Shown one piece after another: positions 1 through 55,050 of a stretch of DNA of 61,331 nucleotides. Each line of letters starts with the position of its first letter. The stretch's first letter is position 1. The notes beneath the pieces are model-generated. The model saw only the letters and a list, made by a program, of their open reading frames with translations, made no database searches and was not told the DNA's origin. A program made the translations under genes and the position numbers. The DNA comes from Psammoneis japonica (taxonomy: Eukaryota), in contig QPGO01000311.1 in assembly GCA_008632985.1 (NCBI GenBank), forward strand, positions 1 through 61,331, given 5' to 3'.

Positions 1-73
1 CCATGACCAAAGCTTCTGGCCCAATTTTCCCATCCTTGTCATTGACTCCTGCAACAGTTGTGGACTGCATTTC

Positions 74-2579
74 TCAACGTGTGAGTGATTTGATGCAGGC
101 TCCAATGCCATCAACCTCTCCTTTGCCATGTCCAGGTGCTCCAATGGCACGGTCAAACACAATGTTGCACTTGTGCGCAAAGACAGACAACAAGTGCAGT
201 GCCAAAGCACATTGGCATTGTTTGGCACAACCATCAGTGTGATCCCAAATCACAAGCCACACCTCACACAGGCTGTGGTTTTTTAACCAGGTGACAAACT
301 TTTCCAAGTGAGCATTGGTGGTGGTGGCATCTTGCTTGGAAGAGTCAGAGAGATGCGCATGATGTGTTTTCTGAAGCTCGTTGTCAACCATTGCATCGCA
401 AACTCTTCCTTCAATTGACAATGTTTGGTTGTTGCCACAATGGTCACCCTGAACTTGGTTGTTGAACTCTGCCTTCTGACACTCAGAGTGGTCATGAGAC
501 ATGAACAGGCTGTTGGGTGTTGACTCAAATGCTTTGCGACGCATTTCCATGCAATGATTTTTCCCAAGAATGACCACGTGGGGAAGGTGGCAGTGGAGCT
601 TCTTTAAACTTGGAATGCAGTGCTCTTTCACAAAGACACCGACTGGTTTTCGGAACCTTGTCAACAAGGTCCTACGTTTCACCTTTGCATCCTTGTTCCC
701 ATCTGGATCTGCCTCACAAAACAGGACATGCTTCCATGTGCACACCATGCTTGGAACAACTTTTTACAGTCAAGTGACATTGAAACAAAACTTGGGGCAC
801 ACTGGGACTTTCATTCTGTTCCAACAATGGCATTGGATGGGATGGGCAATGCTCACATTCACCCAAAATGCATTTCCAATGAGGATGATCCTGACCATTG
901 ACATTGCCACAAATGATGGTTGCAACTGCATCTCGGGCTTTAGGATGAAGGTGATGGCCATTGGGGCCAAACGCTTCCTCTTGACAGACACGCATTGTTT
1001 CCTCCAATTTGCCAAAGGCACTGTCACAGTTCTCCAAGTTCTCAGGATCCTCACTCACAAGCTTCAACCGATTTTGCTCCACCTCCATCTCTTTTAAAAG
1101 CTTCCTTCGAAACCTGTTCAGTGCATCTTGTAGAAAATTGGCGTTGGTGCAATCGCTGCATTGACACATGCTGCATTGACTTGCATTCATTTTTCGACAC
1201 TGCTTGGGAATCAAAAATCGAAACATCATGTCACTGATGAGGGTCTTGCCATTGGCATCACGTGCATCTTCGAATCCGCCAACAGACACAGGCTTCAACA
1301 TGTCATTGCACAGCTCACGTGTGGACACATTGCGCAACCATTTGTTCACTCGTTTCTTGTTTCCATCTTCATCTTTAATGAGAATCATGTCTCATGTGTT
1401 GGGAGACTGCACTGTGTCAGGATGATTTGACAACCAGTGCACAAATGCCTTTCAGATCTCAGGGGAAACTTTGTGAGGACGCTGACAGGGTTGCACTGAA
1501 GACCACATGACATCGTCAGTGTTTGAAATCAATGCCTCTCTGGCAATCTTTCCCTTCTTCATTTGGCGACAAACAGTGCTCCGTTTCAGGCCAAGTGCCT
1601 TGGCACAGTCATGGGAAGACAATTTTTCCTCTTCAGCAGATTTTTCTGGTGAACCGGAGATTCCAGTTGCCAGAGCATGGACAAACGATTTTTTGTCGTC
1701 GGTGAGGTGTTGACCATTGCTGGTGTCATTGGCACGTGCCCACATTTTGCCCAACTGCTTGGTGATTTGCAAGGCTGCAGAATTTGTTTTCGGCAATGTC
1801 AAATTACAAGCCTGAAGAAATGGGGCCATTTTGGGAAAATGCAAAGCATGCACAAACGCACAGATTTGTTGTTCTTGAGTGGCAGCGCAAGACAACACTC
1901 CTTCTCTTGCTTTGACCGCTGCATGACAAAGTGCCTGTTGGGGATCTTTGTGGGTTGCTTTGAATGCATGAGGATTAAAAGTGGGGCAACCTTGGGAGGC
2001 GGTGAGGTTGACAGCAGTTCGGTTGGCCGAAGCGACAGAGGGAGTGACGGTGGCATTGTCAGAGTTGGAGTTGGAGGGAGTGGCGGCCGCTCCTGCAGTG
2101 TGCATTTGGGAGGGGCCTGGCTGTCTTGGCAAGGACAACCCTGGACAATGAGTGGGGTGTTCCTTGGAGGTGTTCAGGTTGAAAGCAGCCAGGTCGGTGG
2201 GAGCAACGGAGGGAGTGACGGTGGCATTGTCAGAGTCAGGGTTGGAGGGAGTGGCGGCTGCTCCTGCAGTGTGCATTTGGGAGGGGCCTGGCAGTCTTGG
2301 CAAGGACGACACTGGACAATGAGTGAGGTGTTCTGTGGAGGGGTTTGGGTTGAAAGCAGCCAGGTCAGTGGGAGCAATGGAGGGAGTGACGGAGGCAGCA
2401 GAGCTCAGGTTGTTCGGGTTGGAGGGAGTGGCTGCAGCTGCTTCAGCTGCTGCAACGACATGGGCGGAGACCATGGAGTGTGTTTCAAGTTCACGACGAG
2501 ACTTCTTGTTTTTGCTGTTGCCAGTCCCTGACTTGTGTCGACAGCCAACTCCATTTTGCTTCTTCCTCTTGTTGCCCAT
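74..2579 (-). pseudogene. Fragmented transposase (ORFs 1452-2579, 714-1388, 74-748)
   Basis: Motifs DHTDGCAKQCQC and DRAIGAPGHGKGEVDGIG resemble the DGCxxQY...HGKGxxDGxG core of eukaryotic DDE transposases. A Cys-rich segment (KCILGECEHC) is present. The reading frame is broken and expected Tyr residues appear as Cys/His. Confidence 0.7.
2040..2392. repeat. 171-bp in-frame tandem repeat (two full units plus the start of a third) in the transposase N-terminal region
   Basis: GGGAGTGACGG recurs at 2040, 2211 and 2382; the peptide repeat TPSVAPTDLAAFN...PGPSQMHTAGAAATPSN is visible in ORF 1452-2579. Confidence 0.95.
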
Positions 2580-3236
2580 GATGTGCTGGAAATTTGATTA
2601 AAAGTGTGCATCGAGAGGGCTGGTGGATGAGATGGATGGCAAGTCGAGAGGACACATTTTTTTGGCATGCTCAATCAAATTAACTGCACCGTGTCTGTAG
2701 AAATGAGGCATGTTCGGACGTCAGTTGAGTTGAAGAAGACCAAACACACGAGCTCCGAAAAATGAAAAAGTGAGTGATCACGAGCATTTTTCACGCAGAA
2801 TGGGACACCAGCCGAAAATCACATTTAGCACAATTGAGTCCTTCATTTTTGATCATTTCGAAAATCAAAAGGTGAGTGCACACCCAAAACACATGTAAAG
2901 TGTACACTTGCCCTTCGATTTGGCAAAAAACGGATTTTGAAAAAGTCATTTGCACCAAACCTAAAAATGGGCCAACGATGGGAATCGATCCCACGTGGAG
3001 CACCTGGAGCTGGAACAGGCCTGCTTGAACACACCTGGCATGCTTTTGTTCTCACAAATGCAAAAAACAACGAGTCTTTGGCTTGACAAAACAGGGAATG
3101 TGGGGAAATTTTGCAGAAGAGCACATGCAGAAATGTGTGCGTGCGACATGCATGACAAAAAATGTTCTCACAGCACATGCCAGCAAGCTCCTGCCTGGGG
3201 CTGGAGAGCAGTGCATGCAATGTGCGGCAGGGTGAT

Positions 3237-3269
3237 NNNNNNNNNNNNNNNNNNNNNNNNNNNNNNNNN
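3237..3269. other. Assembly gap (N run) next to a poly-C tract
   Basis: Ns in sequence. Confidence 1.
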
Positions 3270-5861
3270 CCCCCCCCCCAGCCCATTTCAAGTGCAATCA
3301 TCATCGGTGAGCAAAAGCTGCATGACAAACAACCACAACAAAACAACTTGAAACTGCTTCTCAAAAGACATTGAAAGTTGAAAGCCATCAAACACCACCA
3401 TGACAGACAGTCCCTTTGCAACAGAGAGGGGAGCAGGCTGCACTGGTCTGTTCATCAAAGCACTCCTTTTCTTTCTTCAACAGAGCCAAGTGAAAGCAAT
3501 GATGAGCAACCCAGATGGAAATGGCGACAGACCACCACTGACAAGAAAAGCTCTGACATGATCATTGTCAACTGCAATGACAACCCCAACACCAGCAGCA
3601 GCAACTGCAAATTCGTGTGAGCACTCAACAGTGATGGCAGTGGCAGCAGCATTGTGCTTCACTCCCAGACACAGTGACATGCAAGAGTGGGTGGATTTCT
3701 GCTCACACATCAAAGCTGCACCACCCAAGCATGTCAACAAATCTTTGGCTCACATGAGAAAAGTGGCCAGCACAATTCTTGAATGGTTGCATCTGGAATC
3801 ACAGAGCAATGATGGTTCCAGCAGCGGTCCTTGTGCACGGAATTGCTTCAAAGGTCTTCAACAGGCTGGCATGGCTTTTGTTGTCAATGAAGACACTCTG
3901 GATTGCTTTGATGCATCATGTGAAAAATGCAGGAGTTGGGTTGCCTGTGGTGTGCTCAGAAAAAACTGCATGGACAACCGTGGAGAGATTGTCATCCCTG
4001 GGAAACACATTTGGTGGGACCTCCATCAGTTTGTTTGGAAAGGAGGTGATGCTGTTTTGTCACCTGGCCATTGGAGCACAAGCACCAGCAAGGAGACATG
4101 TTGACAATTTCTCCCAATCACCAAGATCTGTGGGATGAACATGATGGCTCCTGCACAATGTTTCTCAGAATCCCGCACCCAGCCAATTCTGCAGCTCCAA
4201 GCAGATTGTTCCATGGCTTGCACATTTGTGGTCAATTTTTTTATGATCCACTGCCATCAAGCCATTCACCCAGAGGTGGCCCCACTTTTGAACACCTGGC
4301 CCAGTGTTGCAGGTGCAGCATGCAGCGTCCAAGAAAGCAACAAGACTCCCATGTTGGCAAAATTGGCTCAACTCATGCATCCAACAAAACTGGGTGCTCA
4401 TGGCAGATCCATTGGAAATGGCAAAGGAAGTTTGCCTGGCTGCCAACATGTGGCTTTTTTCTCTGATGACAATGAGATGGAGACAAAGACACAGCACATT
4501 TTGTGCTCAACCTTGGGTGCTGTCTGAGTCACAAGATTGCCCCCAAGCCAAAATGCAAGATCACATTTGAGGATTTTGGGTTTTCTTTCAAGGATGTCCT
4601 GTGTGGTCTCTTGAAAAAAAGAAACACTGGGATCAATGATGTGTTCCTTCCAGATGGAATCAATGTTGGAAGTCACTCAAATCCCAAAACTGTCTGTGAT
4701 TTGGTGAAGCACCAATGGGAACATGGAGCTCTGTGCTGTTGAATCCATGTGCACAAGGGTCACAACAAAATGGACTGATGTGTCAAAGGGCCAAAAATGC
4801 AGTTCACAAACAATTTTCCCTGCATCACCACACTTGGTGGTTCCCTCACTGGGTGCAAAAGCAGCAAGGGGGGCTTTTCTTTCTTGTGCAAGAGCCCTTT
4901 TGAGCGCAGCCACTCAAGAACTTCAGCCTCGAGTTGCTGAGAAAGATGAGTTGACATGGTGTTTGTGTTGCATGGCAAATGATGATGCAATCAAGATGCC
5001 CAATGGGACCATCTTTGACATGAATCCAGAAGATGTCTCATTGCTGCTGGAGGACTTGAGTGCACTTTCTGGGGGTTTCCCCCCGTGCCCCCACCACTTC
5101 ACATGAGGAATGCCAGAAGGAGGTGGAAATCCAAGAATTTTTCAAAGCCCTTTTGATGCCCAACTGGGAACCTGGGCAGGCTCATCACTTCCAATGCAGC
5201 AATCCTGAGTGGGCTCATTGCTCAGAAAGCACCCACGGGAATGGAAACAGCTCTCCACGGTGATGTGCAGACAACACCAGCAAATGCAAAGTGATCAAGG
5301 TTGTTGATGCCGCTGCATGTGAAGGTGAAGGAATCAAAGTTGAGTGTGAGTCCAAGGGTGGTGGAAAAGAATCAACATCAACCTGGTGTGGCAACTGAGC
5401 TGCCGTCATGGGGAGGGCACTCCCATCAGAGATTGACCTCTTGTGCCCACTGCGGTGACAGAGGGTGCGAGCATCCACCAGACACATTCACTGCAACCAT
5501 TGCATTGAGCTCTCATGCCCACTGTGTCGTCACTGTTCTGTGCAAATGCTCAATCTGCCGTGCTCTGCAACACAACTGTGCAAACTCAGATGGGACGCAC
5601 TGTGGTGTGATGTGCAAAAACAAGCGTCTCTCTTCAGAGAGGTCTGTCACGGATGAAGAGACACATTTCTCCATTGCTTTTGATCAACAAGGCAGAATGC
5701 AGGCTGGGAGCTGGGAACCCTGCTCTGCCTGCTTGTTCTGCCAGGTGCCGGTGCCGGCCGACACAGCCTCCACATCATGGTCTTGGTCTTGTCTCATGCA
5801 TCCAGCCTCCATCCATCCGCACGCACGACGCACGGAACACACCCCATCAAGACTCCTCCAG

Positions 5862-6092
5862 CCTCCAGCCAGCGCAGCGCAGCTGTTGGCTAAAAAATGT
5901 CTGCCCATCAGTGGTTTTGGGGGTTTTGCTTGTGCATTTTTCATTTTTACGTACGAAAAAGACGACTCTGTCTGTCCAGCGTTCACCGAATCTGGCAAAC
6001 CCCCCAAACGCACAGATTGACAGGCTCTTTCAGTACAAATTCTACGTACACAAGTTTCTCTGGCCAGCTGGCTGGAGAGGTCCCCCACATTG
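5862..6092. mobile_element. Degenerate tandem copy of the MITE at 6110-6322
   Basis: Aligns along its length with 6110-6322 (CCAGCCAGC...GGGGGTTTTGC...GTCCAGCGTTCACC...CAGCTGGCTGGAGA) but carries short insertions. Confidence 0.8.
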
Positions 6093-21239: not shown

Positions 21240-22300
21240 ATGGACACATTCATGATGTAAAGGAGGTGGCAGCTGCATTTTCCATGTGGGTGTTGGTTGA
21301 TTTTAGCAATCAATGCAAACCTGCATCTCAATGCAGGGTTGGCAAACTGCAGTTTAGAGGAGTTGCCACACCCCATTCTCCCGTTTGGGGCTTCCACCTG
21401 CAACCAAAAGTTGCTTCATCAAGCCCCTCCCCCTGATTGTCCAATTTCATGAGTCTTCATTGGGGGGGGGGTTGTTTCACAATGCACTGTGGTCCTGGGC
21501 TGTGGCAGGCGGGTCATCCTCCGAGTGAGATGAGGGTTGAGGAAAGGAGCAGGGCGAACTTCCAGCCAGTTTCCAGCCAACAACAACAGACTGACAGAGC
21601 ATCAAAGCCCCTGCCCCATGCCCCAAAATTGTTGAGAAGGAGTTTTTAAAAAAAAAAGCAGAAAGACAAGCGCACAACTCTTCCGGCATGGGAAACAGTG
21701 GAATGTTTTGGAGGTGGTGTGCCAACCCCCGCGCACTTTGCCTGCAATGGCATCCCACTGGCAAGAGGAGCATGGGGTGCACTCAGCCAAAAGACATCTG
21801 CCTCTGAAAAGGGGAGCTGATGCCAGCAGCAAATTGACCCCACACCATCTTTGCTGTCTGCTGAGCACACAGGCACTCGTGGTGTTTGACAGAGAGAGGT
21901 GGGTGGGCCCTGCTGCTGAGCTTTGTGCAGCTCAAGCACAGGACCCACCTAAGACCAAGGAGAGAGACCCAAATCTTCAAGGCACAGGTGGATGATCAGC
22001 CACTTTGGCAGCTCTCAAACAAGGGACAGCAACCAGGTGGGGGGGGGGGGGCTCCTCTCTCCTGGCCTCTCTCCTCCCATTTTTTGTTTCTTGTTCTCAA
22101 GAGTTTTGAGGTGCTTGGCAACCTCCTTCAACGCATGTCACAACTTGGCAATCTCCACATGAGTGCACTGTGGGCTGACTTTACTTCCGAGCTTGCGTTC
22201 TTTGCCTTGTCCGTGAGAGTGGTTGCCGTCGATTGCAACAATTCAGATTCAGTGACAACCTCAAAACCCAAAACCCCCATGTTCGCCAGACAGACATCCT
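21240..22300. other. TpA-depleted domain 2 (unidentified repeat or pseudogene relic)
   Basis: TA is almost absent except in TTTA/TAAA contexts; normal composition resumes near 22310. Confidence 0.85.
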
Positions 22301-24843: not shown

Positions 24844-25311
24844 CCCTTCAACCACCGGACTCCCTTACGTCACAAATATAGTAAATGAAGTAATTTCAGA
24901 TATGGATAATATTAAGTTCGCGCGATTTTGTTTTGGAACGCGCATTCGCCGAAAATCCCGGGGAACCCTTTTTGAAATTTAGAAAGTTCAATGTCGACTT
25001 TTAACACCGGGTTTTTTGCAAGCTACATCTATGAATAGAGAGGAACTAAATGTCAACCTTTAACAATGGAGGTTATCATGAATTACTATCGCAAATAGAC
25101 CAACAATACCACACCCTTGGAGCAAATCTCCACCGGTGGAGATTTGCTCCCAATAAGTAAATGCACGTGGTATACTTTACGTAGACTCTACGCGACATGA
25201 CATTTTTATACTATGTTCATTATATGGGTATAAAGTTGCATGACACGTCACACATCCTTAAGTAGAGCAAATCTCCACCCGTGGAGATTTGCTCCCCTGG
25301 TGGTTGAAGGG
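24844..25311. mobile_element. piggyBac-type MITE, unmutated copy A
   Basis: TTAA target duplication at 24840-24843 and 25312-25315; TIR CCCTTCAACCACC / GGTGGTTGAAGGG; internal palindromes at 25119-25150 and 25265-25294. Confidence 0.92.
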
Positions 25312-29664: not shown

Positions 29665-30414
29665 TATATATAACTAAAGGAAGCTTTTAGAAAACGTGTA
29701 AAAGCTGCTTGATGCTGTTGTCGCCGGTGTTGGCGATAAATGATGGTGCTGACTAACAACACTTACTTTGCACTGTATTACACGCCGTCAAACTCCAGTG
29801 CAATTGTTTGCTCGGCGCATCATATCCGAACTTGATTTTGTTGCGGACCACACTCTTGATGCTGGAACACATCTGGAGTCAGATCACCCCAGTTTCATTG
29901 ACGCAACCTACAGAGAAAGAAGGGCCGCGTTGACTTGAGTCGGCCAAGAATCATGAATGTCAGAAGCCAATTGCGCCGGTGGATTATTCCAGACGAGATT
30001 GCAACGTGGGCTGCCGAACAAGTCGACACGTGGTAACCAGAGAAGAAAAGATTTTCCACAACCTGGTTGTGGGTCTGTTTTCCGTCTAACCAGAAAGGCG
30101 AGCAGTTTCATAACCTTTACTCAAGACGATGCAGCGTTTTAGCCCAAAAAGAGTTTGCAAGTTTTACTTTACTACTCAGACTTCCTAGAGCAACGATGCA
30201 ACATTTGCTGATCCACACATGCTATTAGCATGCTTGCTTCTGAGGTCTTGGCAAAATGTTGGTGACAGGGAGAAGAAGTTGTCCAGGTACTGCTGAGAGA
30301 GTATTTCACCGTAACCGAAAAGGTCGTTCTGGAACTTCCACCACAAGGCATGCGTTTTGATGCGACTTGGGATGTCTGGGACAATGGCAACGCCTTGACT
30401 CTGGAACTTGCGTG

Positions 30415-31446: not shown

Positions 31447-31749
31447 CAGATTTTTAGAGAGAATCGCTGCATAATCGGCGATATGAGAACCCCATATCCG
31501 CGATCACAACAATACTTATTCAACGGAAGGAAAGCACTATTTCAATGATACATCGTTGTCACACTTCAGATTGTACTGCAATTTCGTGCAAAAACTGACG
31601 AATGATAAGCTACAGGAATGTATTGCAATGATATAAATATGTACATATAAATTTTTATATTACAATGATACGTGGAACAGATTGCAGAGAACATTCTGCT
31701 TCCAACAAAACGCACGCTCCAATGTTCTCTCCACGACTTAAACCAAGAT

Positions 31750-33290
31750 CAACGCCCCCGGAAAAAACGAATTTGTGTTCTTCTTTCTACTTCTTTCTCA
31801 TTCCTGGCGGCTTGCAGTTTCTGGAAATGACAGTGGTGGGGTGGCCCTGATTGTTCACAACAAGGTTCTTGTGCTGTTCACTGAAAAGAGAACTGAGTGC
31901 AAACAACTCTGTTGCATCTGCCCAGCTTGGTGGCTGCTGCAACAGCGCTCCTTGCAGCCAAGAGCAAAAGCAGCTTGCTTCATCAAACCAATGGCCAATT
32001 TTTGGCTGCGCGGCAATGTTGCCAACCAAGCCCTGACAACAAGCGTGGCCACACAGCTGCGCTGAAAAAAAACACCTGTGCTGTGACCAAGATTGCAGCA
32101 GCGGACATTGCTCCACACACCAGCTTCGTCAACTTGTCTCACACACCACAGAGTTCTTTTTAACCCTTCAACCACTGAACTTGAGCAAATCTCTGTGGGT
32201 GGAGATTTGCTTGCTTGCATCACAAACACAGCAAATGGAGCAATTTAAGACATGCACAACATTTTGTTCGCACGATTTTGTTTTGGAGCGCGCATTTGCC
32301 GAAAATCTGAGGGAACCCTTTTTGCAATTTAGAAAGTTCAATTGAAAAAATTTGTGAACAGAGAGGAGCCAAATCTCAACCTTCAACAATGCAGGTTGTC
32401 ATGAATTGCCCCATCACAAACAGAGGAATGACACCACACCCTTGGAGCAAATCTCCGCCGGCGGACATTTGCCCCCAACAAGCAAGTGCACATGGCATGC
32501 TTCGCACAGATTGTGCATGATGTGATGTTTTCATGCTGTGTGCATTGCACTGTTGCAAAAGTGGAGATTTGCTCCCCTGGTGGTTGAAGGGTCAAAGTTT
32601 CTGAAAGTTTGCCATGTGCCGCCGCAGGTCAGGCGCCAGTTGGAGCAGAGATGTTGGTGTTTTCAAGAACTCCCAATGCTTGGGTCATGTGTGTAGAACT
32701 GAACAAATTCAACAACTGTTGTGACCATCACGGGACAGTTTGGTGACATTTTGGTGCTCTGGTGCACCAAAATTTTTGGCAGAAATTAAGTGACAAATGG
32801 CATGGCCTGATGAAATGGGGGGGCCAAGCAACAAGAGCAGAACATGACAAGCATTGGAATGCAGAGGAGTGTGAAAGTGAGACCAAAGCAGCAGCACAGC
32901 AGCAGGAAAAGTGGAGCAAAAGTTGCTCACAGCAGAGAAAACAGAAAAGCTGCTGTGGTGTGCACTGAGCACACTCCAGCGCAACAAGTGGAGGGTGCAA
33001 AGACACAGCGCCACCACGGGACTGGGTGGCCAGGTGCTTGCCACCCCTGCTCAAAAGCGCTGTCCACTGAACTGGACTCTGGGGCAGGAGAGACACTTTG
33101 CTCTTAAAAAAAAATGTTGGCACTCTGGCGGCACAGCCTCTTCTTTGACACTGCATCCCACCTGTGTTGTGCTGTGCAGAGACACGAAGCAGCTGACAGC
33201 GCAGCAGCCAGCAACACTCCTCATTGTCAATGTTGCTCAGCTGATTTGAGAGGTGCATGTCAACAGGTTGAAGGTTGATGCCCGCATTTT
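31750..33290. other. TpA-depleted domain 3, containing piggyBac MITE copy B
   Basis: TA is nearly absent; survivors are mostly in TTTA/TTAA/TAAA contexts. Confidence 0.9.
32164..32591. mobile_element. piggyBac-type MITE, hypermutated copy B
   Basis: TTAA|CCCTTCAACCAC...GGTGGTTGAAGGG|TCAA; collinear with 24844-25311. Confidence 0.92.
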
Positions 33291-33551
33291 AAATGTGCTG
33301 CATTTCGTCCCAGTTTACTGCTCTTTTTGCCCTCACTTCGTCATGCGCCGCCCGACAACAGACCAGACCGACCGGCACGCACGATGTACAGTGTTTGCGC
33401 GCGCACTGCCTGGTACGAGAGACTGGCGATCGACCGACGACCATCAGACATTTCGTTCGTTCGTGGCGTTTCGGCCCTTCACTCTTTACGGTACCCACTC
33501 GTCGCACCGCAACTTGAAACTACTTTTCTGCAATGCATCAATAAGAGGGTG

Positions 33552-34930: not shown

Positions 34931-35059
34931 CCTAATACTTTAAAGATGTAATAGAACAGAAGTGGCTGCCAAGTACATATTATGTTGTTACTATGGCTGC
35001 TGCCGCTGTTGCATGTACGGATCACCCAATTCTTCAATGTACTGCCTTTTGGGTTGGAG

Positions 35060-36300
35060 GACTGCTCTCACCGAAAATGACTTGTTCTTACATGGAGGTG
35101 ATGAGCTTGAGGTGAAATTGACAAATGATCAAGAACAACAAAAGCAGCTTGTGTTTCAATCCCGTCTGACACCCACAGCCTGCCGTCATTGCGCACCAGG
35201 CCAAAACCGGTTTGTCTGAGCTGTGCTCATCCATCTCTTGAACATTCATGTGTCCATGTCCAAAACAAGTCTTTTGATTCATCATTTTGGAACCACTCCC
35301 CCCACTCCTTCTTGCAATCGAACCCCTGCTGTCTGCAGCAGCTTTCTCAATGAACACACACACAGATTCTCAGTGTGACTTTAGAGGGAGCTTCTTGATT
35401 TTCTTCTAAGAGGGCACAAACATCAGCAAGGGATGCACCATCATTGAGCTCATGGAGTTTCTTTTCTGAGTTAGAGCCTCAAAAATTGTGGTCTGCTTTG
35501 ACGGCAATGGGCTCATCTGCGCTTGAGAGGTCCACATGCAAAAATCAGTGCAACGAGAAATCATCAAATGGGTTTGCTTTTTCAACTCCAGAAAACATGT
35601 TGGTTCTGCCTCACTGTGCCCTCAGCTAAATGGCAGAGCTGTGTTGTGACAAACTTGGTTGAGGCAGTCTCTTCTGCTGGTGGTTTGCTCTTTTGCTCCT
35701 GTGCTGCTGCCCCTTTTTCTGTCGGGTGCGCCTGCTCTTTCACTCTTTCAAGAGCTCAAACAATCTCTTTGAGAGTTTTGCAAGCCTGACAAGACAATTG
35801 CCTTCCTCAGCAGACACTGTGTCCTTCTCAAGATCTTCCAAACTTGTGGCAGCTGCAGCAAGCTGCTTCTCAATGCCCGCCCTCTCTGCTCTTTCTCTCC
35901 TGCCCCCCCCCCCCNNNNNNNNNNNNNNNNNNNNNNNNNNNNNNNNNNNNNNNNNNNNNNNNNNNNNNNNNNNNNNNNNNNNNNNNNNNNNNNNNNNNNN
36001 NNNNNNNNNNNNNNNNNNNNNNNNNNNNNNNNNNNNNNNNNNNNNNNNNNNNNNNNNNNNNNNNNNNNNNNNNNACCTCGTTCTCGCCCCGTGCCTCTCC
36101 TCGCTCAGCCGGAGTGGCTGCTGGTCCTCATGGTCCTCCATTTCCTTGTGAGGGACAGAGCTCTTCTCAACATTGAGTGGGTCTTTCTCAAGCACGCTAA
36201 TCTCCTTGTGAGGATCCTTGGTTTCCTCAAGAGCTGCTGCAATTCCGGGAGTGATCCTGCCTGCCTCAGCTCTCCATCTCGCTCGCTCGCTCGCTCACCA
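35060..36300. other. TpA-depleted domain 4 with assembly gap (35915-36074)
   Basis: Very few TA; degenerate coiled-coil-like ORF on the minus strand; N run after poly-C. Confidence 0.85.
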
Positions 36301-38369: not shown

Positions 38370-39187
38370 TTATAGGACAGTTTCCTCCTCGATTGATGGC
38401 TCGATGATTCCAAGATACTTCTTGTATCCCGCAATGCGCCTCGAGAGCGTTTCACACTGACGGTGTACTACATCTCCCGCCTCCATGGAAAGATCAATGG
38501 CTTGTTGCTCAATCACCTTGGGCCATTTGTGCCAATGGTCATTATCCACGAAGAGCAGTGCTTGCATGGCATCCATGGTTTCCTCTTGCGGAATCGCTGC
38601 TACAAACTTAATGCCACGACGGATTTGAATGGCGTGACGAGCCGAAGCCAAGGTGGCTTCACGTTGCTTGGCGTCTTGAGCCGCCGCGGCCTTGAGGCGG
38701 GAAACCTTGTCGCGTTTTCCCAAGAGCTCACTGTGTTGGAATTGAACCTAAGGTGACAAATGAAAAGGACGTCGTTAGCACATCGACACAATCAAAAGCA
38801 AGAATTGTAATTCGAAAAAAGTGTAGAGATGGAAGCTTCTCTCACGGCATCTCCACGTAGAAACAAGCGCTAATTCTACGCACGCACCTCCTGAGACAAC
38901 CGTTCCACACGGGCTTGCAGCTCTGCAATCTCGTTGGGATTGGATTGCTGCTGCAGCTTTTGTAGAGCTTGTTGAATCGAAAGTGCGTTCTTTTCCATTG
39001 CATCTCGTTCTTGTTGAATCAAGGACAGACGTTCCATGGCGAGTTGTTTTTTGCGGTGCTCTTCATCGCGGTTGCGACGGAGATTGGCCAAAATGCCGTG
39101 GAGCTTTTCGACAATGTCCTCCTTTTGCTGAGACGTTGTCTGCGCAGTGGTGAGAGGAGCCGAACAGAGAACGCTGCTTGTCTTCAT
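38370..39187 (-). CDS. Uncharacterised coiled-coil protein; exons 39187-38888 and 38747-38370
   Basis: The intron GTGCGT...CCTTAG joins ORFs 38876-39235 and 38370-38723 in frame; heptad-like E/Q/L/K-rich sequence. Confidence 0.7.
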
Positions 39188-39244
39188 GGTTGCTTGCTTG
39201 TTGCTTTTGATGTTGTGAGCAACATCCAACAACACGAAGCGCCA

Positions 39245-39457
39245 TGTTGGGGGACGTCTTCGGAAGTGAGACTGTCGAAGAAAGTTGCGTAGAATTTGTG
39301 CTAAAACAGTCTGTCAATCAGTGCGATTGGGTGTTTGGGACCTCTGGACAGATCACACGTGTTTTCTTGTGCGTGCAAATTGCACTGGAAAAAACCCCAA
39401 ATGCACTGGCGATCAGACCGCCTTTGACGATCTCACTTCCAAAGACGCCCCCCAATG
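39245..39457. mobile_element. MITE related to 6110-6322, in opposite orientation
   Basis: TIR TGTTGGGGGACGTCTTCGGAAGTGAGA / TCTCACTTCCAAAGACGCCCCCCAATG; the interior aligns with the reverse complement of 6110-6322. Confidence 0.8.
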
Positions 39458-39599
39458 TGCGAACGAACGTAGAAGTGTCGTACGTGGAATTGTGCAGAAC
39501 TTGTGCAACGTCAAAAATTCAAACTCCTGGTGTTAATTTCATGTAGAATTGCACGCAAAAAATCCAGCACGCACCCTCACGATTACGAAACAGCGCCAA

Positions 39600-42480
39600 C
39601 AACCGCGACATCACCATGAGAATCAGCAACAACAGCATCTCGTCCAACTCAATGGGTTTGAACAGTTCCCTTTGGGATCAGACGCTGTCTGCATGATGAC
39701 AGGTGCATCACAAATGAAAGCGTTCCTCCAGTGGCAACAACAAACAACTGCTTTGCAACAAGAGCAAGAAGGAGCTTGATGCCCCAGCATGGCAGAACGC
39801 AGAACCGCAGCATGCCTGTCAACAGCAAGCGCCATGCCACCCCAACAAATGACAGTGCTGTCACACACAACAGTGCAGTGGCCCCAAAATCTCACGCGGA
39901 TCATGTGCGACAGCAGCACACCACGCTGAGACTCTGCTGCTTTGCAGCCAAAATCCTGTCACACACAACAGCCAGCGTGCATTTGCCAGAAGTGGCTCGT
40001 CCCAAACAGCAACACGATCCCAAGAAGGCAAAATCTGCTCAACAAGAAATGCAGGCCAGTGCCGCAGAAACGTTGTCCATCAAAGAAAACTTCTCAAACA
40101 ATCCCGTCGCTGGCAGCAACGGCACGCCGGAAGCTTGCTCTGCACTTGTCAATGATTCAGATCTGGATGCAAACTCTCTTGAGAATCACCATGATGACAA
40201 CAGCAAGGAGTTGTTCTGGCACTTTTGAACTCGCAAAACAACAACAAAAACAGCAATGTCTCTGTCGCTGTTGAGCAAGGAGGACAAAGACATGAACCTG
40301 GCAGAGTTGCAACAAGAATTGAAGTCCATGCAGTCGGCTCTGCAAGCAAGTCAAGACGAGAATGCATCACCGCAAGCCAAAAATGCACATCTTGTTGAAA
40401 TGTTCCTGTCAATGTCACAAAAGGAAAACAAGGTTCTTCACGAGCAGTGTCCGTCATGGCAAGACCAGTCAAATCGACACAAGCAAGAATTTGCAAGAAT
40501 GGCTCCAGAGCATGGAATTTCCATGGCAGAAACAACACCAACCACTGTTGTGCAGTCAGCAACTGATGCTGAGCCACTCACCATTGCCGCTGCCAAGATT
40601 GCTCCATCACCATGGTTGCACTGCAAAACTCCTCAAAAAGCACTCCAGCCACCAGACAACAATGTTGCTGCAAGCAAAACAAAAGATGGCACTGCAAAAC
40701 ATCCCCTTGTCTCATCCTTCATTTCACCTGTCCTCTTTCAGCCTGTGTGTTGTGTCATTTTTACGAGGTTTTGCATGGGAATTCAGAAAAATTTTGGTGG
40801 GGCTAAAGTCCCGGTGGGGCCAAAGTGGCATCTTTTGGATGCTGATCACTGACCACATCCACCCTTCTCCAACACTGCCCAGCCTTTCATCCAGTGTGCT
40901 TCTGCACAAAAGTCATCGCAACTGGCCCACTGAGAATGGACAGGTTTTTGGGGTCAGTGACATTTTCAGTTGCACTTGACATTGGGCATTGGAGTCAATT
41001 GTTGTTGTTGTTGAGCACAAAGCAAAATGGCTTTGCAGCAAAAAGTCTTCCAATCATCATGCTCAGTCTTTTCTCCATTTTGTGGTGACTTTCGGCACCA
41101 CTTAATTTGTCACACAGCAGCATTGCAATGAGAACGGTTGATCTGCCCCACTTGCAACAAAAACAATGATGAAAGCCTTTTAAAAAGAATCTGTGTTTTT
41201 CTCAACCCACACCATGAGCTTTGATCACAAGTGCGAGCATTGGTGGTGCGAGTGCGACAAGGCAGAACAATCGGAGAATGACTCTTTCTCGTGTGCAAGT
41301 GTCGATGATGACAAAAACAGCACTCAAGACAGCACCGAGTGCACAAATTTGCATGATGATGCCAATGAGTCAGAAGGAGAGGTTGGCTCCCCTCCTTAAA
41401 AAATTCCAACAACAACAGTTGCCCTGACATGGAGATTGCCACTGGCTGCTTCAACTGATTTGGAGGATGCAACAGACATGATGAACACAGACAATGACCA
41501 TTTGTGCAGAATTTTCTCCAGCATTGCTGCTGCCAGCACCACCAGCAATGGCACTGCCACCGTCCACACGAAGGATGGTGAAGGTTCTCAAACCCAGAAC
41601 AGGGCTGCCGATGGTGCCTTTGCTTGTGCCCCATTGGAGACTTGTCTCGGGAAAAGCACTGCTGGCAGCATGACAACTTTGTTGCTGATCTCCTGGAAGT
41701 CTGTGGAACAAAGCCTTTCAAAACCTTTTGTGCTGAACACAGTCTTGTGAGTCCTTCATTTCAGCTCAATCCCCACACTTGTGTGGGAAAAGCAGCCTCC
41801 TGTGATTGTTTTGCAAAAGCCTGCAAGAAATTGCCTGACTTGGCCTTGCCACAAGTTGCACTCCATGGAACTGATGAAAAGCATTTGGCAGACATTTTTA
41901 ACAGGACGGATTGGACTGAAAGAAATGCAGGAGGCAAGCCTGTGGAAGAATGGGGGAATGCTTTTCTGCAGATCCAAGCATCTCAACTGCCCACAGCAGA
42001 AACACATGCTCCTGGAGTGGATGAAAAGATGTTGGTCCATTTGGTCATTCATCTACTTTCCTGTCCTGCTTCCAAAACAAAAGATCCCGCTGTCCCCAGC
42101 TGCCCACCACCACATCCATCATGACGCTGTGCCTGCAATGGAGCATCAGATGCCACTTGGAGTGTTGTCATGCCGCCGTGTCGAAGCAGATGCTTTGAGG
42201 TGTGCCAACAACATGCACGCCAAACTCAAGGATCTTACGGCAAAGATTCTTCACATCGAGCACAGCAGGCCAGATCTTTCATGACGAGCTGTTCTTGGCC
42301 TCGGACATGTGCAAAAAGAATCAACAATGTTTGAGCAAAGTTTCCAAGGCGGATGTTGCTGCATTTCTTGCAAACCAAAACTGTGACGCCGACGTTGTCT
42401 CTTTCTGCTTTCCCGGACTGCCCGAGCCTCTTTTGGCTGCCAACGAAAATCAGATTGTCAACGTTGATGCACTCGAGAAA
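39600..42480. other. TpA-depleted domain 5 (pseudogene relics)
   Basis: TA is nearly absent and returns gradually after ~42480. Confidence 0.9.
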
Positions 42481-42558
42481 GATTTGTACCAGAGCAAGCT
42501 GGAACTTGCGCAACAACACAGTCGCAACCATCCGACAACGACTGATCGAGATGGTTGA
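41120..42558 (+). pseudogene. PARP catalytic-domain-like gene relic
   Basis: PQVALHGTDEKHLADIF, then after a frameshift GLD*KKCRRQACGRMGECFSADPSISTAHS...KMLVHLVI. This matches the PARP signature HGT...GLD...QAYG.GEYF...S..YS once TG/CA are reverted to TA or CG. Confidence 0.75.
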
Positions 42559-44134: not shown

Positions 44135-45316
44135 GATAGAGTTTAACGATGCTGTTGTTTCGAGACAGCATTGTAGGGATCTATGTATGTTGTGACGATT
44201 TCCAGATTTATGCGATTCCGTCGTCCACGACTTGAGCACGGCGGATCTGTTACGCGCATCGCGCATCGAACGTGACTGGCGCTCGTGGATATCTGAAAAC
44301 GCTCATTCTCGAGAACCCCCCCATCCATTTTCGAGAATGCCTCTCTTCCATTTTCGAAAATGTGGAGCTTGCGCTCCCGAGCAATCCGGTCCACACAAAG
44401 TTTGTGTCGAACACCATGAACAATGCATCGTCTCAATCACATGGTGCGTTGTTCGAACGTGATGCACTTCATCGCATCAAGTTGAAAGCGGCCAGGCGAG
44501 CCTGACACGAACAACTTCCAAGATGCTGACACCAGAACAACTCCATCACATCGAATGCCTCCTCTCTCATTGTGAGTCTGGCAGTGCTCAGCTGGACTCA
44601 ACATGAAAGAATGGAGATGCAAGCACCGTGAATGGAGCCAAACATCAAAAAAATGTTTCATGACAGATTGATGATGTGTCGGAAAGAAGCCAAGGTTCTC
44701 CCGCTTTGACATCATGTTGCAAGCTCATGAGACCAAAGGTTGACACCGCCATTTTGCTGGTGCAACATTCTCCCATTGACATCATCATTCTGCCAGCACA
44801 ACATTCTCCCATTTGTCAGAAAATCACTTGTTGGAGTGACAATCAGAAGTGCAAAAAAAATGGGTCATGGCGAGGCAACGCAGAACCTCAGTTCTGATCT
44901 CTTGTGTTGCGCCAGGCAACAGGCCAACACATTTCTCACAGCAATTTGGCAATTCAGGATCCACCCACAGAGATGAAGTGAACTGTGGTTGAAAAGTGCG
45001 TGTGATTTGAGACAAAATAAAAAAAATGGCATGGCTTCTTCGGCACCACATTTGCGTGTGCGTGGACGAGACACTCAGTCGGCATGTTGCTTGCTCGCAG
45101 TGCTTGTGTTTGTGCACAAACCAAAGTCTGCAAAGCGATCATGTGGCTGATGGTGTGTTCCAGCTTTTCCAATTGCTTTGTCCTGAGATGACTCTCCCTT
45201 TGCTCTTTTGTGACATTTCTTGATGAGTTCTTGGGAAAGCTTCCAGTCAATCTGATGCATGGGATGTTGTGGTTTGAACAAATTCAGAACCATGACAAAG
45301 CAACTGGAATGATTTC

Positions 45317-45730
45317 GGTCAATGTCATGCAATGACCAGGCAGCAGAGGTCATGTCTGATCCAAGCTCCAAAGCCAGGTTGAGCACACTGTCTTGGCAGT
45401 GAGGAACGTCAGCTCTGCATGGCAATGACACCTGCAACGGTGTGCTTGGAACACATTTCGGTCAATGTCATGCAATGGCCAGGCAGCAGATGTCATGTCT
45501 GACCCAAGCTCCAAAGCCAGCACAACCACATTGTCTTGGCAGTGAGGAATGTCAGCTCTGCAAGACAATGAAACCTGCAACAGCACTTGGAGCACATTTT
45601 GGTCAATGTCACGCGATGACCAGGCGGCAGCGGAGGTCATGTCTGACCCAAGCTCCAAAACACCAGGTTGACCACATTGTCTTGGCAGTGAGGTCAGCTC
45701 TGCAAGGCAATGAAACCTGCAATGGCACTC
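45317..45730. repeat. ~142-bp tandem repeat, three copies
   Basis: GGTCAATGTCA..CAGGCAGCAG..GTCATGTCTGA.CCAAGCTCCAAA..GTCTTGGCAGTGAGG starts at 45317, 45460 and 45601. Confidence 0.92.
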
Positions 45731-46897
45731 AGGACACAACATGACAGTGGACAACATGTGTTTGTCATTGCTGCATGGACAGCCAACCAATGTTGTCAAT
45801 CAGCTTTTCCTTGGAGGAATTGTTGTCGAAGCAGGTTGCATTCACCTCTTCAAAAAATTGAAGCAACATCAAACATGTTTTTTTCCTTGAAAGCCTTTTC
45901 CTTCAACAACACCTTTGACAAACACACTTTGTCAAGACATGTCTTGACAGAGCATGTGAAAGCATTGCAACTGGGCATTTCAGCTGGGGCACTGGCAGAA
46001 GACAAAGATGACTCTGCAAGCTCGCCAGAGCAATCTGACAAAGGGGCAGAGGTTGAGGCCCTGCTGCAAGACCTGAGACATGGAAGACCCAGTGCAGTGG
46101 GACACGGGACTGCAACTGTGGCAATTCCTGCAAGCATGGTTGCTTCATTCTTGAGATGACCGTGAGTGGTTGTGCACATGAGGAGATGGGGACACCATGA
46201 GGGGGCATTCTTCTCTGGGTGTCCTGGAGAAAGAAGCTCTGGTCTTGTGACCAACAGGGCCAGAGCTTCTGGAGTGCAGTCATTCCAAACAAGAACTTGT
46301 GCTGCCAGAAGACACCGGGCAATGTCATGACTGGGAACGTCCATGCTGATGAGACCCAGTGACTGATCTTGCTCTTGCTGACAACCAGACACAGACCAAC
46401 AACTGTGCCAACTCCGTCTGAGATGCCAAGAGCTGGAGCAAGATCAGTGCCTTGACCTAGACTGAGAACAAGAGGAAGAGCAAGACCGATGCCTTGACAT
46501 CAACCAAGGGCAACAGGGATGTGTGCAGCAGCAAGACTGTGACCAGGACCTTGACTGGGACCTTGACCTGGAATTCAAGCAAGAAGCATGTGACAAAGAA
46601 CGTGACCTGGGTGTGCTGCAACAAAGTTGTGAACAACCCCTGGTGAGACAACTGCCGGCAGAGGGAGCAGGAGAAGCTTCCCTGGAAGACATGCTCTTTG
46701 TTGGGCAGCCCTTGCCCCTCGAATGCTGCGTTTGCTTCTTGTTGAATGACGACACAGAAGGCAGGGCGTGCACAGGCACCCACTGCACTGGCGCTGGTGC
46801 TGAGAGCAGCGCACATTGCAAAAACGTCACAGGATGTGCAGGCTGCAAGGGCATGGACAGAGCACAACATTGTGCCTGCATCAATGGTGATGGAGTG

Positions 46898-47185
46898 ACA
46901 GGCTGCAATGACGTGGAAGGAGCACAATGATTTGGCTGCAACAATCACAACGGAGCACCAGGCTGCAACAAGGTGGAAGGAGCACAATGTTGTGACTGCA
47001 ATGACGTGGAAGGAGCACAATGATTTGGCTGCAACAATGTCAATGGAGAGGCAGGCTGCAATGATGTGGAAGGAGCACAATGATTTGGCTGCAACAACGG
47101 CGATGGAGCAGCAGGCTGCAACAAGGCAGAAGGAGCACAATGATTGAGCTGCAACAATGGCAACAGAGCGGCAGGCTGCAACAGC
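46898..47185. repeat. Short coding-type tandem repeat (GGCTGCAA..GGAAGGAGCACAATGATTTGGCTGCAACAA; units of ~33-57 bp)
   Basis: About five recurrences of GAAGGAGCACAATG; reads GCNDVEGAQ*FGCNN in the frame of ORF 46523-46930. Confidence 0.85.
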
Positions 47186-49819
47186 ATGGACGGAGCAAGA
47201 TTGGATGGATTTCTTGATGGTGGAAATTGACCACTTGGATGAGAAAGGGAGGGGGACTGATCACTGCTTTGCAGAAGAGCCACTGTGCCACAATGCACAA
47301 CGTGATTCTTGAGGGACCAAGCAATTGGGTGATCTCCAAGAATGTCCACAATGTCCACAAGGAAGTGAACAATGAGGACAATGCATGGGAGTGTCTTTGT
47401 GGCAAAGAGGAGGACTTGTCTGTTGACTTGAGCAATGTGAGGAAGAGTGTGGTGAGATGTTTTGACCTCTTGTCCAAGGAGGAGCACCGCCATTGCCTCT
47501 CTCACAAGATGCATGGTGCAAGAAAGGGGGTGGATGAACAAATGAGGATGCTGTTGACACAGATGGGTGGTGCTGACAACAAGGCTGGCAATGGAGTGAG
47601 AAAACAAATGCAACCAAATGCAGCTGATGTTGCTTTCTCATTTGCACTTGATTCTCAGATGTGGGCATGACCATTGATTCTCAAAAAACAATGGCAACAC
47701 TGCTTTTAAAAATGACTGTTTTGAGGGATGCTGATTTTTAAGAATCCACATGTTTGAAATTCCATGCAACAGATCCTCAAAAATGTTGAACAAATGCTGA
47801 CACACTGTCTTGAGTGTTGACCATTGTCTGCCATTGGCAAATGGCCCACTGTTGCCACAAGCAAAAAACCGGTCTGTCCTCCACCTTTTGGCATCTGTGC
47901 AACAGTTGATTTTGTCTCCAAAATCGATTGGTTCTTCACTGTGCAGTGCTTCTTACATCTTCTGACATTGTCAATTGATGTGCTCCTGTGCCTGTGTTCA
48001 CCAGGTTCATGGTTCTAAACACAGTTGCTGCCATCACAAGAAGGGCCTTTTTCACTCCAAGAGGACAGACTGGTTGTCAGTGGAATTCTGCATGGCAATG
48101 TGCTGAGAAATTTACACAGTTTGTTTTTGCATCGGATGTCAAATGCCTCGCCATTGTCTCTCACATGAACGGCATCATGGCAAGTTCATGACACACACTC
48201 CAATCAAACAATGTGGGTGCACAAGCTCTCATTCATTGTTGTTTTGCCTTGTTGCTCGCATTCTGCATGCAGGCATTTGTCACGAATTAGAAATGCACAA
48301 CGTAAAAATCATCCATCAATGAGGACAATTGATGACAAAAAATCTGTGCAAATTCTCAAACCGCAGATCTTTTTAGAAAATGACGATGTGCCATCTTTGG
48401 CCCCCAATTGTGCCATGATGCAACACTCTTTTATCCTGCTGTTTTCACAAACAGATCTTTGTTGACCTTCTGACCGATGCCACAGCAGATGGGTTTTGCA
48501 TGTGAAATGATGGGAAGCCACTCTTAGAGTGGTTTTGTGTGCAGTTTTTTGCTTGTAGAGTCAATCACAAAATGAGACCCGGCACAAACAATTGAGACCT
48601 GCTTGGGGCATTGTGCAAAAATGTGCAGAATTTTCTGTTGGCCAAAAAAAGTCATGAGGTGGTGTTTGAAACAGCACAACAAGAGCACTCCATTGCTGCC
48701 ATTTTTGCCCACCCAGAAAAATTCTTGGCCCTTGCCGAGCACATCTGATCCAGCACTGAAATCACACACATTTCTGCATGGGTCTTAAATCACCACACCT
48801 GCCTGTCAACCTTGGCTTGTTGGACATTTTGGTTCATGCACTGAAACTCAAGAACTCTGCACAGATTTGAAAAAAGGAGAGGATTTTTTTGTGACGAGTT
48901 CAATGAGTTGTTTCATGTCCAGGCTTGATTTCATGAAATGCTGCACAGACATTGTGGCATCTGCACAGACCCAGATCTTAGGTGGGTCTCAGTGTGTGAT
49001 TGACTCTGACCCAGTGGTCCCAGTGGTGCACACAAGAACTCACAATTTTAGAACCTGTTGATGCTGTTCAACACATTTCTTCTTTGTTGTCCAATTCTCA
49101 GCCATTGCAGCAGCATTTGTTTGCTTCATCAGAGCCAATGCACTGTGATGCACAGACACCTGAAATGGGCATTGCAAATGGCACAATGGCGTCATTGCGA
49201 TTGATCAATTTTTGTGGCAAGCACAATGTTGGTCCCATGGTTGCTTGCAAAATTGCTGACTTCTTTGCATGTGCACCCATTTGTGAACATGAACTGAGAG
49301 TGCTCTTGTGAACCAGGGCAGTGATCCGTGGGATGCATTGTTTGGATGTGGCATGTTTGGCCCCACAGGAATGTAATGTGTTGGCTGAGCATGCAAATGT
49401 TTGAGTGATTGTGTGATGACAAACATCATTGGATGCATGACACGTCAATGAGAGATGGATGTCTGAATGCACTTGTCATCAGTTTTGCATTGATTGGTCA
49501 AGTGTCACCGAAAAACTCTACTTCTGACATCATGACGTTTTTTTGCTAAATGGCTCGAAATCTACTCAATCTACTTCTGCTTACCTGAAAACCACTTGTT
49601 AGTCAGAAAACGAGCTCCTGCTGCAAGAAAATCTGGGATGGTCATGCGCGACATCGCGCGAATAAGACTCTATGCAGAACAGGTTCTTCGTGCTTTTTCC
49701 ACCTTTGGGGGTGACGTGCAGACTGCACTAAGATTACCTGTAGAAATCCAGAAGACTTCAGTAAAAAATCTACTTCATTTTTTTCATAAAATGGCCAAAA
49801 TCTACTTTACCCACCCGTC

Positions 49820-51807
<1,988 letters not shown>

Positions 51808-53959: not shown

Positions 53960-55050
53960 GACCATTTTACCGGTGTCAACATGTCGAGCATCACAAGGCT
54001 AGGCAGGAAAGAGGTGTTGAAGTGTCTCAAGCACAAGCGGGGGAAGCAGGTCTCTTGGGAGGTCAAACTGCACCTCACACCAACATGTGTCCCCGAAGAA
54101 GATGTCATCAGATTTCCTCTGAACCACAAGTTGGAGGGTGTCAGATTTTAAATTGTGACATCTGCGGACATGATGGTGTGAGATTGTGCAGTTTGACTGT
54201 CGCAAGAATCGATGTCCCCTCTTGATGATGTTTCGATGCATGCATGGTTTGCTGGTCTTGCAAAGAGATGTCATCATCATCCAGCTTCTAGCCTGTTCCA
54301 GCTCCAGGTGATGCACACAGGCTCGACTCCCATCGCTGGCCCATTTTTGCATTCAGCACAACAAACTCCTTCAAAATCAGGTTTTTGCCAAATCAAAGGG
54401 TGAGTGCACACTTTGCATGTGTTTTCTGGTGTGCACTCACCTTTCGACGTTCGAAAAGATCAAAATTGAAGAAGTTCGCTGCGCTGAACTGGCGCAGATG
54501 ATCGGCCTCTCGCATGATGGATTTCTCATCACCTGGGGCTGGAACAGGCCTTCTCCAAGTTGCGCTTTGTGTCAAGTCCCGGGAAAATCCGCTCATGAGC
54601 GGAAATTTCGTCGCCAGCTTTGGCTGCGGATGAGTGTGGTGGTTGTGCAGAAAACGAGGAAAGCTCTTGGAATTTTGGAGAAATTGTCCAAATCAAATTG
54701 ACAATGAGCAAAGTGAGCTCCAAGTTGGGTGTTGTTTGTGAAATGGGGGGTGAGGCAATGGCTGCCTCGTGAAGGTTCTGACTGCTGGGTGCTCCCAAGC
54801 AAGGCTGCCGGGGTTCACGGCAGCAAGCAGATGGCGCTCCACCCTCAGCAGCGGCGCTTGGTGTGATGCACAACAAATTCAAGACACGCTCTAGCCTGGG
54901 GTGTGGGGCTGCGGGGCGTGTTACACTCGGAGCGCGGTAAATTTGCCAGCCAATGAACACATGAATGATCGCCAAAGGCCTCAGTTGAAGCACGCGCACA
55001 TCATTTTGACTTTGGTCCTTCATAATCGGACAACACAACATGCTGTCAAA
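53960..55050. other. TpA-depleted domain 7
   Basis: Few TA between the M17 peptidase and SERF genes; contains a MITE. Confidence 0.8.
54290..54550. mobile_element. Non-autonomous derivative (MITE) of the transposon at 1-3021
   Basis: TIR (A)GCCTGTTCCAGCTCCAGGTGATG / CATCACCTGGGGCTGGAACAGGCC with a 4-bp flanking duplication TTCT; the interior aligns with the reverse complement of ~2830-3021. Confidence 0.88.

Follow-up and report, generated by a model that had tools for sequence, protein, structure and literature searches.

Described hypermutation systems and a pair of MITE copies

Hardly any natural case of targeted A:T-to-G:C DNA hypermutation is known, and the sole report that we found is a 2026 preprint on one alga, the chlorarachniophyte Bigelowiella natans, in which integrated viral DNA undergoes TpA-targeted hypermutation (Mettrop et al., bioRxiv 10.64898/2026.01.13.699255). 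According to the text of the preprint, 231 of 302 nuclear single-nucleotide mutations in mutation-accumulation lines fell within two integrated viral regions, 230 of these 231 were A>G or T>C, and all such GC-biased mutations were on TpA; 124 TpA-depleted clusters were counted in about 95 Mb, and an ADAT2 homologue was proposed as the DNA adenosine deaminase. Here, we describe a 61,331-bp stretch of DNA (hereafter, the window) that contains two copies, A and B, of a putative piggyBac-type miniature inverted-repeat transposable element (MITE). Copy A has an ordinary composition, whereas copy B, together with the DNA around it, is nearly devoid of TpA and rich in CpA and TpG.

Two further groups of systems share part of this picture. 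ADAR hyper-editing and APOBEC3 hypermutation also produce clustered deamination with a neighbor preference (a 5' U in the case of ADAR, as mentioned in the Discussion of the preprint), but their substrates are RNA or the intermediates of reverse transcription, whereas what is affected here is genomic, namely a DNA transposon and unique DNA. Fungal repeat-induced point mutation (RIP) bears a resemblance in being genome-defense-like, in introducing context-specific transitions that saturate the target dinucleotide, and in being able to leak into neighboring DNA. However, RIP creates TpA from CpA, whereas here TpA is destroyed, and it is triggered by duplication and affects all copies, whereas here the sibling copy A is spared and single-copy DNA is affected. 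RIP leaves every repeated copy with too much TpA and too little CpA/TpG, in contrast with the mutated state here, which is TA-free and CA/TG-rich.

Elements of the piggyBac type are recognized by the duplication of a TTAA target and by terminal inverted repeats that are short and end in CCC...GGG. Both copies start with CCC, finish with GGG, and carry TTAA-type flanks, with one half of the duplication in B reading TCAA. The terminal inverted repeat of A is perfect over 13 nt (17 nt with the TTAA included), and the left-end repeat of B agrees at 12 of 13 positions. Both copies are non-coding, no open reading frame (ORF) of A having a family match, and no transposase domain was detected among the window ORFs scanned. 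In contigs of the public DNA run X1, 1020 pieces of which were placed on the region, the summed depth over the two elements reached 734–2723, compared with 58–61 over the flanks, and the contigs break off inside the element; although summed contig depth does not equal copy number, the high depth and the breaks together indicate that the A/B family is multi-copy. No further hidden copies were revealed in the window by a purine/pyrimidine-coded self-comparison, and exact scans with a 29-mer common to A and B returned 0 loci from metagenome as well as from viral contigs. The copies thus resemble piggyBac-superfamily MITEs in their TTAA duplication, short CCC/GGG terminal inverted repeats, non-coding nature, and many copies, and differ in that no autonomous partner or transposase lies within this window. 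Judging from these features, A and B are probably separate insertions of a single non-autonomous piggyBac-type element, an assignment that we hold with good confidence jointly with the explanation developed below.

The original prediction, made from the letters of the window alone, had delimited the two copies, listed example strings in which they differ, and claimed that nearly every TA of A is CA or TG in B; the coordinates and strings hold in the sequence, and the claim was substantiated by counting aligned dinucleotides. The MAFFT alignment of A and B comprises 413 aligned positions with 89 differences, namely 66 transitions and 23 transversions, the A-to-B transitions being distributed as T>C 26, A>G 19, G>A 11, and C>T 10. 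Among the 35 aligned TpA steps of A, 31 are CpA (21) or TpG (10) in B, two are kept, one is TT, and one is CG. Transitions affect 32 of the 70 A/T positions within TpA but only 11 of the 178 other A/T positions (Fisher p = 3e-12), whereas CpA and TpG of A are kept in B at 16/23 and 19/24 sites, respectively. Consistently, the identity between the copies is 94.8% in purine/pyrimidine coding versus 73–81% at the nucleotide level. The dinucleotide odds ratios (rho) of A are 0.91 for TA, 1.03 for CG, 1.04 for CA, and 1.01 for TG, compared with 0.06, 0.41, 1.72, and 1.84 for the same steps in B. The TpA difference between the copies is therefore real and far beyond chance. A second type of change had been missed in the original prediction, although several of its example strings contain it: of the 17 CpG steps of A, six are CpA and three TpG in B, six are kept, and two have another fate.

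TA-poor, CpG-poor blocks across the window

The flanks of B (31789–32159 and 32596–33289) have the same composition as B itself and lie on X1 contigs of single-copy depth (58–61) that end within the MITE. The flanks of A are likewise in the same state as the element that they enclose, being compositionally neutral, and A matches the neighboring unique intergenic DNA. The block that encompasses B and its flanks (rho TA 0.06, CG 0.32, CA 1.74, TG 1.86), which is located between a cyclin ORF (minus strand, upstream end at 31503) and a hydrolase ORF (plus strand, from 33279), is one of eight sharply bounded blocks that together cover 20,340 of the 61,331 bp (33%), the remainder of the window being ordinary (Table 1). 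Across the eight blocks, rho is 0.00–0.08 for TpA, 0.17–0.63 for CpG, and 1.5–2.0 for CpA and TpG. Regions with partial depletion, in which TpA is retained, include 33001–33500, 36001–37000, and 48000–49500. Compared with the DNA outside them, and with both strands pooled, the blocks have lost 70.7 TAn and CGn and gained 70.0 TGn and CAn per 1000 trinucleotides, a mass balance by which they look like ordinary DNA with TA and CG collapsed into CA and TG. With thresholds of ≤ 0.43 for rho TA and ≥ 1.52 for the mean rho of CA/TG, 36 of 118 1-kb windows pass here versus 0 of 1454 in a control of 783 kb of unrelated metagenome DNA (80 loci retrieved by M17 peptidase alignment at 38–47% identity and not closely related); we used the mean of rho CA and rho TG, from which the exact formula of the preprint may differ.

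The blocks contain long ORFs only because TAA and TAG are absent. Of the 106 block ORFs of at least 90 aa, 101 were scanned against Pfam, none reaching the cut-off of a family, whereas the 5 overlapping a run of N at 35915–36074 were left out; the sole weak match was to CALCOCO1 (E 0.0035, 16.7 bits versus a cut-off of 36), and no Pfam family was found in the ORFs of the leftmost block.

This organization has parallels in B. natans (10.64898/2026.01.13.699255), where, as described in the preprint text, changes are limited to TpA and yield TpG or CpA depending on the strand, occur in regional clusters in which TpA depletion is mirrored by CpA+TpG enrichment, and can target single-copy DNA. There are also several differences. 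Given the frequency of clusters in B. natans, about 0.08 would be expected per 61 kb, not three or four, whereas the blocks make up 33% of this gene-dense window. The changed sequences here are a DNA-transposon MITE and unique flanks, and the blocks contain no recognizable viral gene. In addition, CpG is co-depleted here, at odds with the near absence of G:C-to-A:T changes by which the B. natans process is defined, and the term "CpG" does not occur in the preprint text. Finally, the organism here is probably another, intron-poor protist.

Table 1. Coordinates of the two MITE copies, their target duplications, the second MITE, and the TA-poor blocks in the window.
Feature	Position	Strand	Remarks
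TA-poor, CpG-poor block	1..5890	.	18 TpA; rho TA 0.05, CG 0.32
TA-poor, CpG-poor block	21356..22181	.	
Copy A, left target duplication TTAA	24840..24843	.	
MITE copy A, unmutated state	24844..25311	.	468 bp; 13-nt terminal inverted repeats; internal palindromes
Copy A, right target duplication TTAA	25312..25315	.	
TA-poor, CpG-poor block around copy B and flanks	31789..33289	.	6 TpA in 1501 bp
Copy B, left target duplication, unchanged TTAA	32160..32163	.	
MITE copy B, hypermutated state	32164..32591	.	428 bp; 2 TpA remaining
Copy B, right target duplication, now TCAA	32592..32595	.	TpA-to-CpA change post-insertion
TA-poor, CpG-poor block	35090..36197	.	N run at 35915–36074
TA-poor, CpG-poor block	38964..42486	.	
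Second, unrelated high-copy MITE, ~205 bp, in block	39249..39453	.	inverted arms 39247–39280 and 39422–39455
TA-poor, CpG-poor block with tandem arrays	44291..49373	.	
TA-poor, CpG-poor block	49976..51782	.	1 TpA in 1807 bp
TA-poor block	54290..54891	.	0 TpA in 602 bp

A second, unrelated MITE lies within one of the blocks. Its arms are 34 nt long and 85% complementary, and its summed contig depth is 5489, compared with ~60 for single-copy DNA. At seven listed positions of this element, the letter in the contig majority (62–92% of depth) differs from that of the window copy, and at five of these (39300, 39333, 39356, 39375, and 39383), the majority restores TA in place of the TG or CA present in the window copy. 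A 44-bp fragment of the same element is found at 6003–6046.

Other repeats are also associated with the blocks. Tandem arrays are located in TA-free blocks at 2031–2397 (period 171), 45312–45729 (period 143), and 46842–47197 (periods 60/93/153), and a dispersed repeat, both members of which are in TA-free blocks (2823–3021 and 54290–54489), shows 81% nucleotide identity and 92.5% identity in purine/pyrimidine coding; the segment 54351–54489 is palindromic in this coding. The opposite composition is observed in the intergenic regions 17037–17602 and 29412–29670 (rho TpA 1.36 and CpG 0.51 at 17044–17602), which contain CTAG/TAGAG-rich tandem repeats with a period of 21 at 17037–17096 and of 139 at 29412–29664.

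Direction, sequence context, and possible mechanism

It had also been predicted that TA is the ancestral state, that the change took place after insertion, and that both strands were hit. The timing and the strands follow from B and its surroundings. Since the halves of a target duplication are identical at their origin, the TTAA and TCAA flanking B record a T-to-C change at TpA after insertion, and because the unique flanks of B are in the same state as B, the change took place in situ; the 21 CpA and 10 TpG outcomes indicate that both strands were affected. As for the ancestral state, the loss in B is one-sided and saturating, with 33 of the 35 TpA gone, whereas all four pyrimidine–purine steps of A are at a normal level. 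Further support comes from repeat pairs with both members in TA-free blocks, in which homologous steps reading CA in one member and TG in the other number 3, 4, 9, 4, and 5, versus 0.19–0.51 expected under two independent transitions (p from 1e-3 to 3e-9; 9 observed versus 0.51 expected, p = 3e-9, in the strongest case), with the qualification that two of the arrays in the test overlap and are hence not independent. Such discordance is to be expected if an ancestral TA or CG was resolved independently in each copy, and its presence among the units of the block arrays implies that hypermutation was at least partly later than the duplications. We regard it as a better criterion of direction than a family consensus, which would be unreliable with mutated copies in the majority. 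The second MITE family, with its TA majority, points in the same direction, and the B. natans lines, as presented in the preprint, are direct experimental proof of direction for the same signature. A weak hint is also provided by a 30-letter loose-end consensus at 25237 (eight contig ends, agreement 0.73), compared by eye with A and B at seven TpA sites of A: it disagrees with B between CA and TG at three sites, agrees at three, and keeps TA at one. TA (and CG) ancestry is supported by five independent lines of evidence, namely the one-sided saturation, the target duplication, the flanks of B, the CA/TG discordance, and the second MITE family, and the evidence for an A:T-to-G:C direction at this locus, all of it drawn from sequence comparison, is indirect but convergent.

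The same observations bear on a reverse scenario akin to RIP, in which the family would originally have been TA-free, as B is, and A would have gained TpA through C-to-T changes at CpA and TpG. Two copies alone leave the direction formally symmetric, and the ratios of A (TpA/ApT 0.88; (CpA+TpG)/(ApC+GpT) 1.02) are near the RIP index thresholds for Neurospora. However, the four pyrimidine–purine odds ratios of A are ~1, as in the adjacent unique intergenic DNA, and CpA-to-CpG changes would additionally be required to account for the CpG of A. The TA-free unique flanks of B, its TCAA/TTAA target duplication, the CA/TG discordance among block repeats, the predominance of TA in the second MITE family, and the direction measured in B. 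natans (10.64898/2026.01.13.699255) likewise speak against this scenario, which we consider very improbable. Moreover, given that the sibling A, at a distance of 7 kb, has been spared and that unique DNA beside B is changed, targeting is regional and homology-independent, and the existence of an unmutated sibling copy argues against a homology trigger of the RIP kind. The preprint text mentions neither such a sibling copy nor single-copy targets of non-viral origin.

Editing at the RNA level by an ADAR-type activity, on a transcript that is double-stranded or forms a hairpin and with the edits later fixed in DNA, would be compatible with the 5' U preference of ADARs noted in the Discussion of the preprint (10.64898/2026.01.13.699255) and with the inverted repeats and palindromes of the MITE, which could fold. 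Nevertheless, a piggyBac-type MITE is mobile as DNA and thus lacks an RNA-to-DNA step, the same change extends over kilobases of flanking and intergenic DNA that is single-copy and lacks inverted repeats, and the B. natans changes are, according to the preprint, heritable DNA mutations. An origin by RNA editing is hence hardly plausible.

In the A–B pair, the choice of strand depends on the 3' neighbor. When the outcomes in the A–B pair are read as deamination of A on one strand, TAY (Y, pyrimidine) was changed at 27 of 38 sites and TAR (R, purine) at 6 of 32 (p = 1e-5). Accordingly, 39 of the 62 surviving TpA in the blocks (63%) are in TTAA, CTAA, or CTAG, compared with 267 of 1667 (16%) outside, whereas ATAT, ATAC, or GTAC account for 2 of 62 versus 499 of 1667 outside; the outside set includes coding DNA, which makes this baseline approximate. 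TTAA, CTAA, and CTAG have a 3' purine on both strands, and of all TpA contexts in the blocks, the piggyBac target TTAA is the most resistant, which fits the retention of one TTAA by copy B. The preference for TAY over TAR is a further difference from B. natans as described, the terms "context," "trinucleotide," "MITE," and "piggyBac" being absent from the preprint text, figures and supplements aside.

CpG is co-depleted in the same blocks as TpA, and 9 of the 17 CpG of A are CpA or TpG in B. Among the 14 listed single-copy sites at which the window differs from X1, eight are CpG versus TpG/CpA inside blocks. Such differences, at 21194–21772 and 32010–33129, are mostly in blocks and mostly of this type; those at 21194–21772 are on X1 contigs of about half depth (29–39) and may represent heterozygous alleles. 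The pattern suggests a slower, ongoing CpG decay, for which deamination of 5-methylcytosine would be a plausible cause. As in the CpG decay of methylated transposons, CpG-to-TpG/CpA loss is limited to domains, where CpG is still polymorphic; in contrast, such decay leaves the far stronger TpA loss observed here unexplained. Alternatively, one deaminase acting on both A and C could underlie both losses without cytosine methylation, as would be consistent with their common blocks and boundaries and with the ADAT2 enzymes active on both A and C in DNA, cited in the preprint (10.64898/2026.01.13.699255). However, 230 of the 231 B. natans hypermutations are reported there at A:T; in the window, CpG loss is less complete than TpA loss (rho 0.17–0.63 versus 0.00–0.08), the persisting polymorphism of CpG in blocks suggests a slower ongoing process, and the neighbor dependence is unlike (a 5' T for A versus a 3' G for C). 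A single dual-activity enzyme is therefore unlikely, in our estimate, although less so than the two alternatives discussed above.

The blocks could also have been produced by a sequencing or assembly artifact, in which modified bases within the domains would be misread as transitions, and base modifications can cause systematic transition errors on some platforms. Yet the X1 contigs reproduce the blocks with 0–3 differences per 3–5 kb, N-gap scaffolding in the window is atypical of a raw long-read assembly, the block boundaries are sharp, and many independent copies of two repeat families are present in both states. We find an artifact scarcely credible.

Within the domains, TpA has been converted to CpA or TpG nearly throughout, on both strands and in place, and CpG has decayed to TpG or CpA in the same domains. 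We propose that copy B inserted into, or became engulfed by, a chromosomal domain under a saturating, context-specific transition process. The loss of TpA would result from DNA-level deamination of A in 5'-TA-3' (A-to-I), with TAY preferred over TAR, and a candidate enzyme, by analogy with the proposal for B. natans in the preprint, would be a TadA/ADAT2-like polynucleotide adenosine deaminase acting at marked or silenced chromatin. The loss of CpG would be a separate, slower decay, caused in the same domains by the deamination of 5-methylcytosine. Taken as a whole, the proposal of a domain-wide, homology-independent process that combines a deaminase with separate CpG decay is, in our judgment, the most likely explanation of the locus, and we hold it with considerable confidence.

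Several points weigh against this explanation. The window holds just two copies of the A/B family, and because these differ by 23 transversions and several indels, they are cousins rather than a strict before/after pair. The argument from the target duplication hangs on a single base. Sequence cannot separate A>G from T>C chemistry. The text of the preprint (10.64898/2026.01.13.699255) describes no C>T component in the B. natans experiment, from which the CpG loss seen here differs. The upstream region of the hydrolase gene falls within the block around B, and no recognizable viral or transposon gene was found by Pfam in the 101 scanned block ORFs, leaving foreign DNA unproven as the target. 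Furthermore, X1 possibly derives from the same sample as the assembly, and the agreement of its contigs with the window is not fully independent proof against an artifact.

Genes of the window and biological meaning

The genes in the window are intron-poor: an M17 peptidase is encoded by one exon, and a gene of ~1,400 aa contains a 3.1-kb exon. B. natans is reported to be intron-rich (2012 genome paper); passages of PMC6260743 and PMC6009652 contain no value for the intron density of its nuclear genes. Three window proteins have best identities of 40–64% in the protein collection, and their named matches, at 40–62%, are all from diatoms (Attheya, Phaeodactylum, Synedra, Cylindrotheca, and Thalassiosira). 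The ~1,400-aa gene (12225–16761, minus strand) is without a Pfam family and matches unnamed metagenome proteins at 38–43% identity; it is present in three frame-shifted pieces (16761–15520, 15514–15377, and 15317–12225), suggestive of very short introns or frameshifts, and an ORF at 11070–12221 follows in the same frame, past one stop. ORFs at 60555–61331 and 36468–37232 match, respectively, an integrin-beta-type VWA domain (E 1.5e-5, just above the cut-off) and LIM plus Costars domains. These two ORFs are unusual beside the diatom-like enzymes of the window and may help in placing the organism.

In contigs of a further run, X2, a stretch of 110 bases bounded by GT..AG is missing from the alpha/beta-hydrolase gene (joint 34612/34723), a joint by which X2 behaves as RNA data, though it is listed as "DNA?". 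X2 provides no cover over 21000–22333, 31672–33005, 35007–36340, and 39676–40999, and no inference on expression was drawn.

A process of this kind has already been described in the B. natans preprint, and the features reported here would widen it if the organism were confirmed to be different. The locus adds a natural before/after pair, in the form of the cousins A and B, that bears on the direction of the change, its action in place, and its action on both strands; it also adds evidence of a process that is regional rather than triggered by homology, and two testable details, namely, the preference for TAY over TAR and the coupled CpG decay. More tentatively, and with somewhat less than even confidence in the scenario as a whole, we suggest that in a protist other than B. 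natans, with diatoms as the only named relatives of its proteins (40–62%), DNA adenine deamination would be directed to chromatin domains. It would act on transposons and single-copy intergenic DNA independently of homology, on 5'-TAY-3' first and TTAA last, and with CpG decay alongside, entire domains would be left with CA and TG as their only pyrimidine–purine steps. For genome-defense biology and base-editing enzymology alike, a naturally occurring DNA adenine deaminase of defined context would be of interest. If the organism is not B. natans, the process would be phylogenetically broader than reported; if the wider suggestion is true, TpA hypermutation would be widespread across the stramenopiles, alveolates, and Rhizaria (SAR) group, linked to genome defense or heterochromatin, rather than a peculiarity of one chlorarachniophyte.

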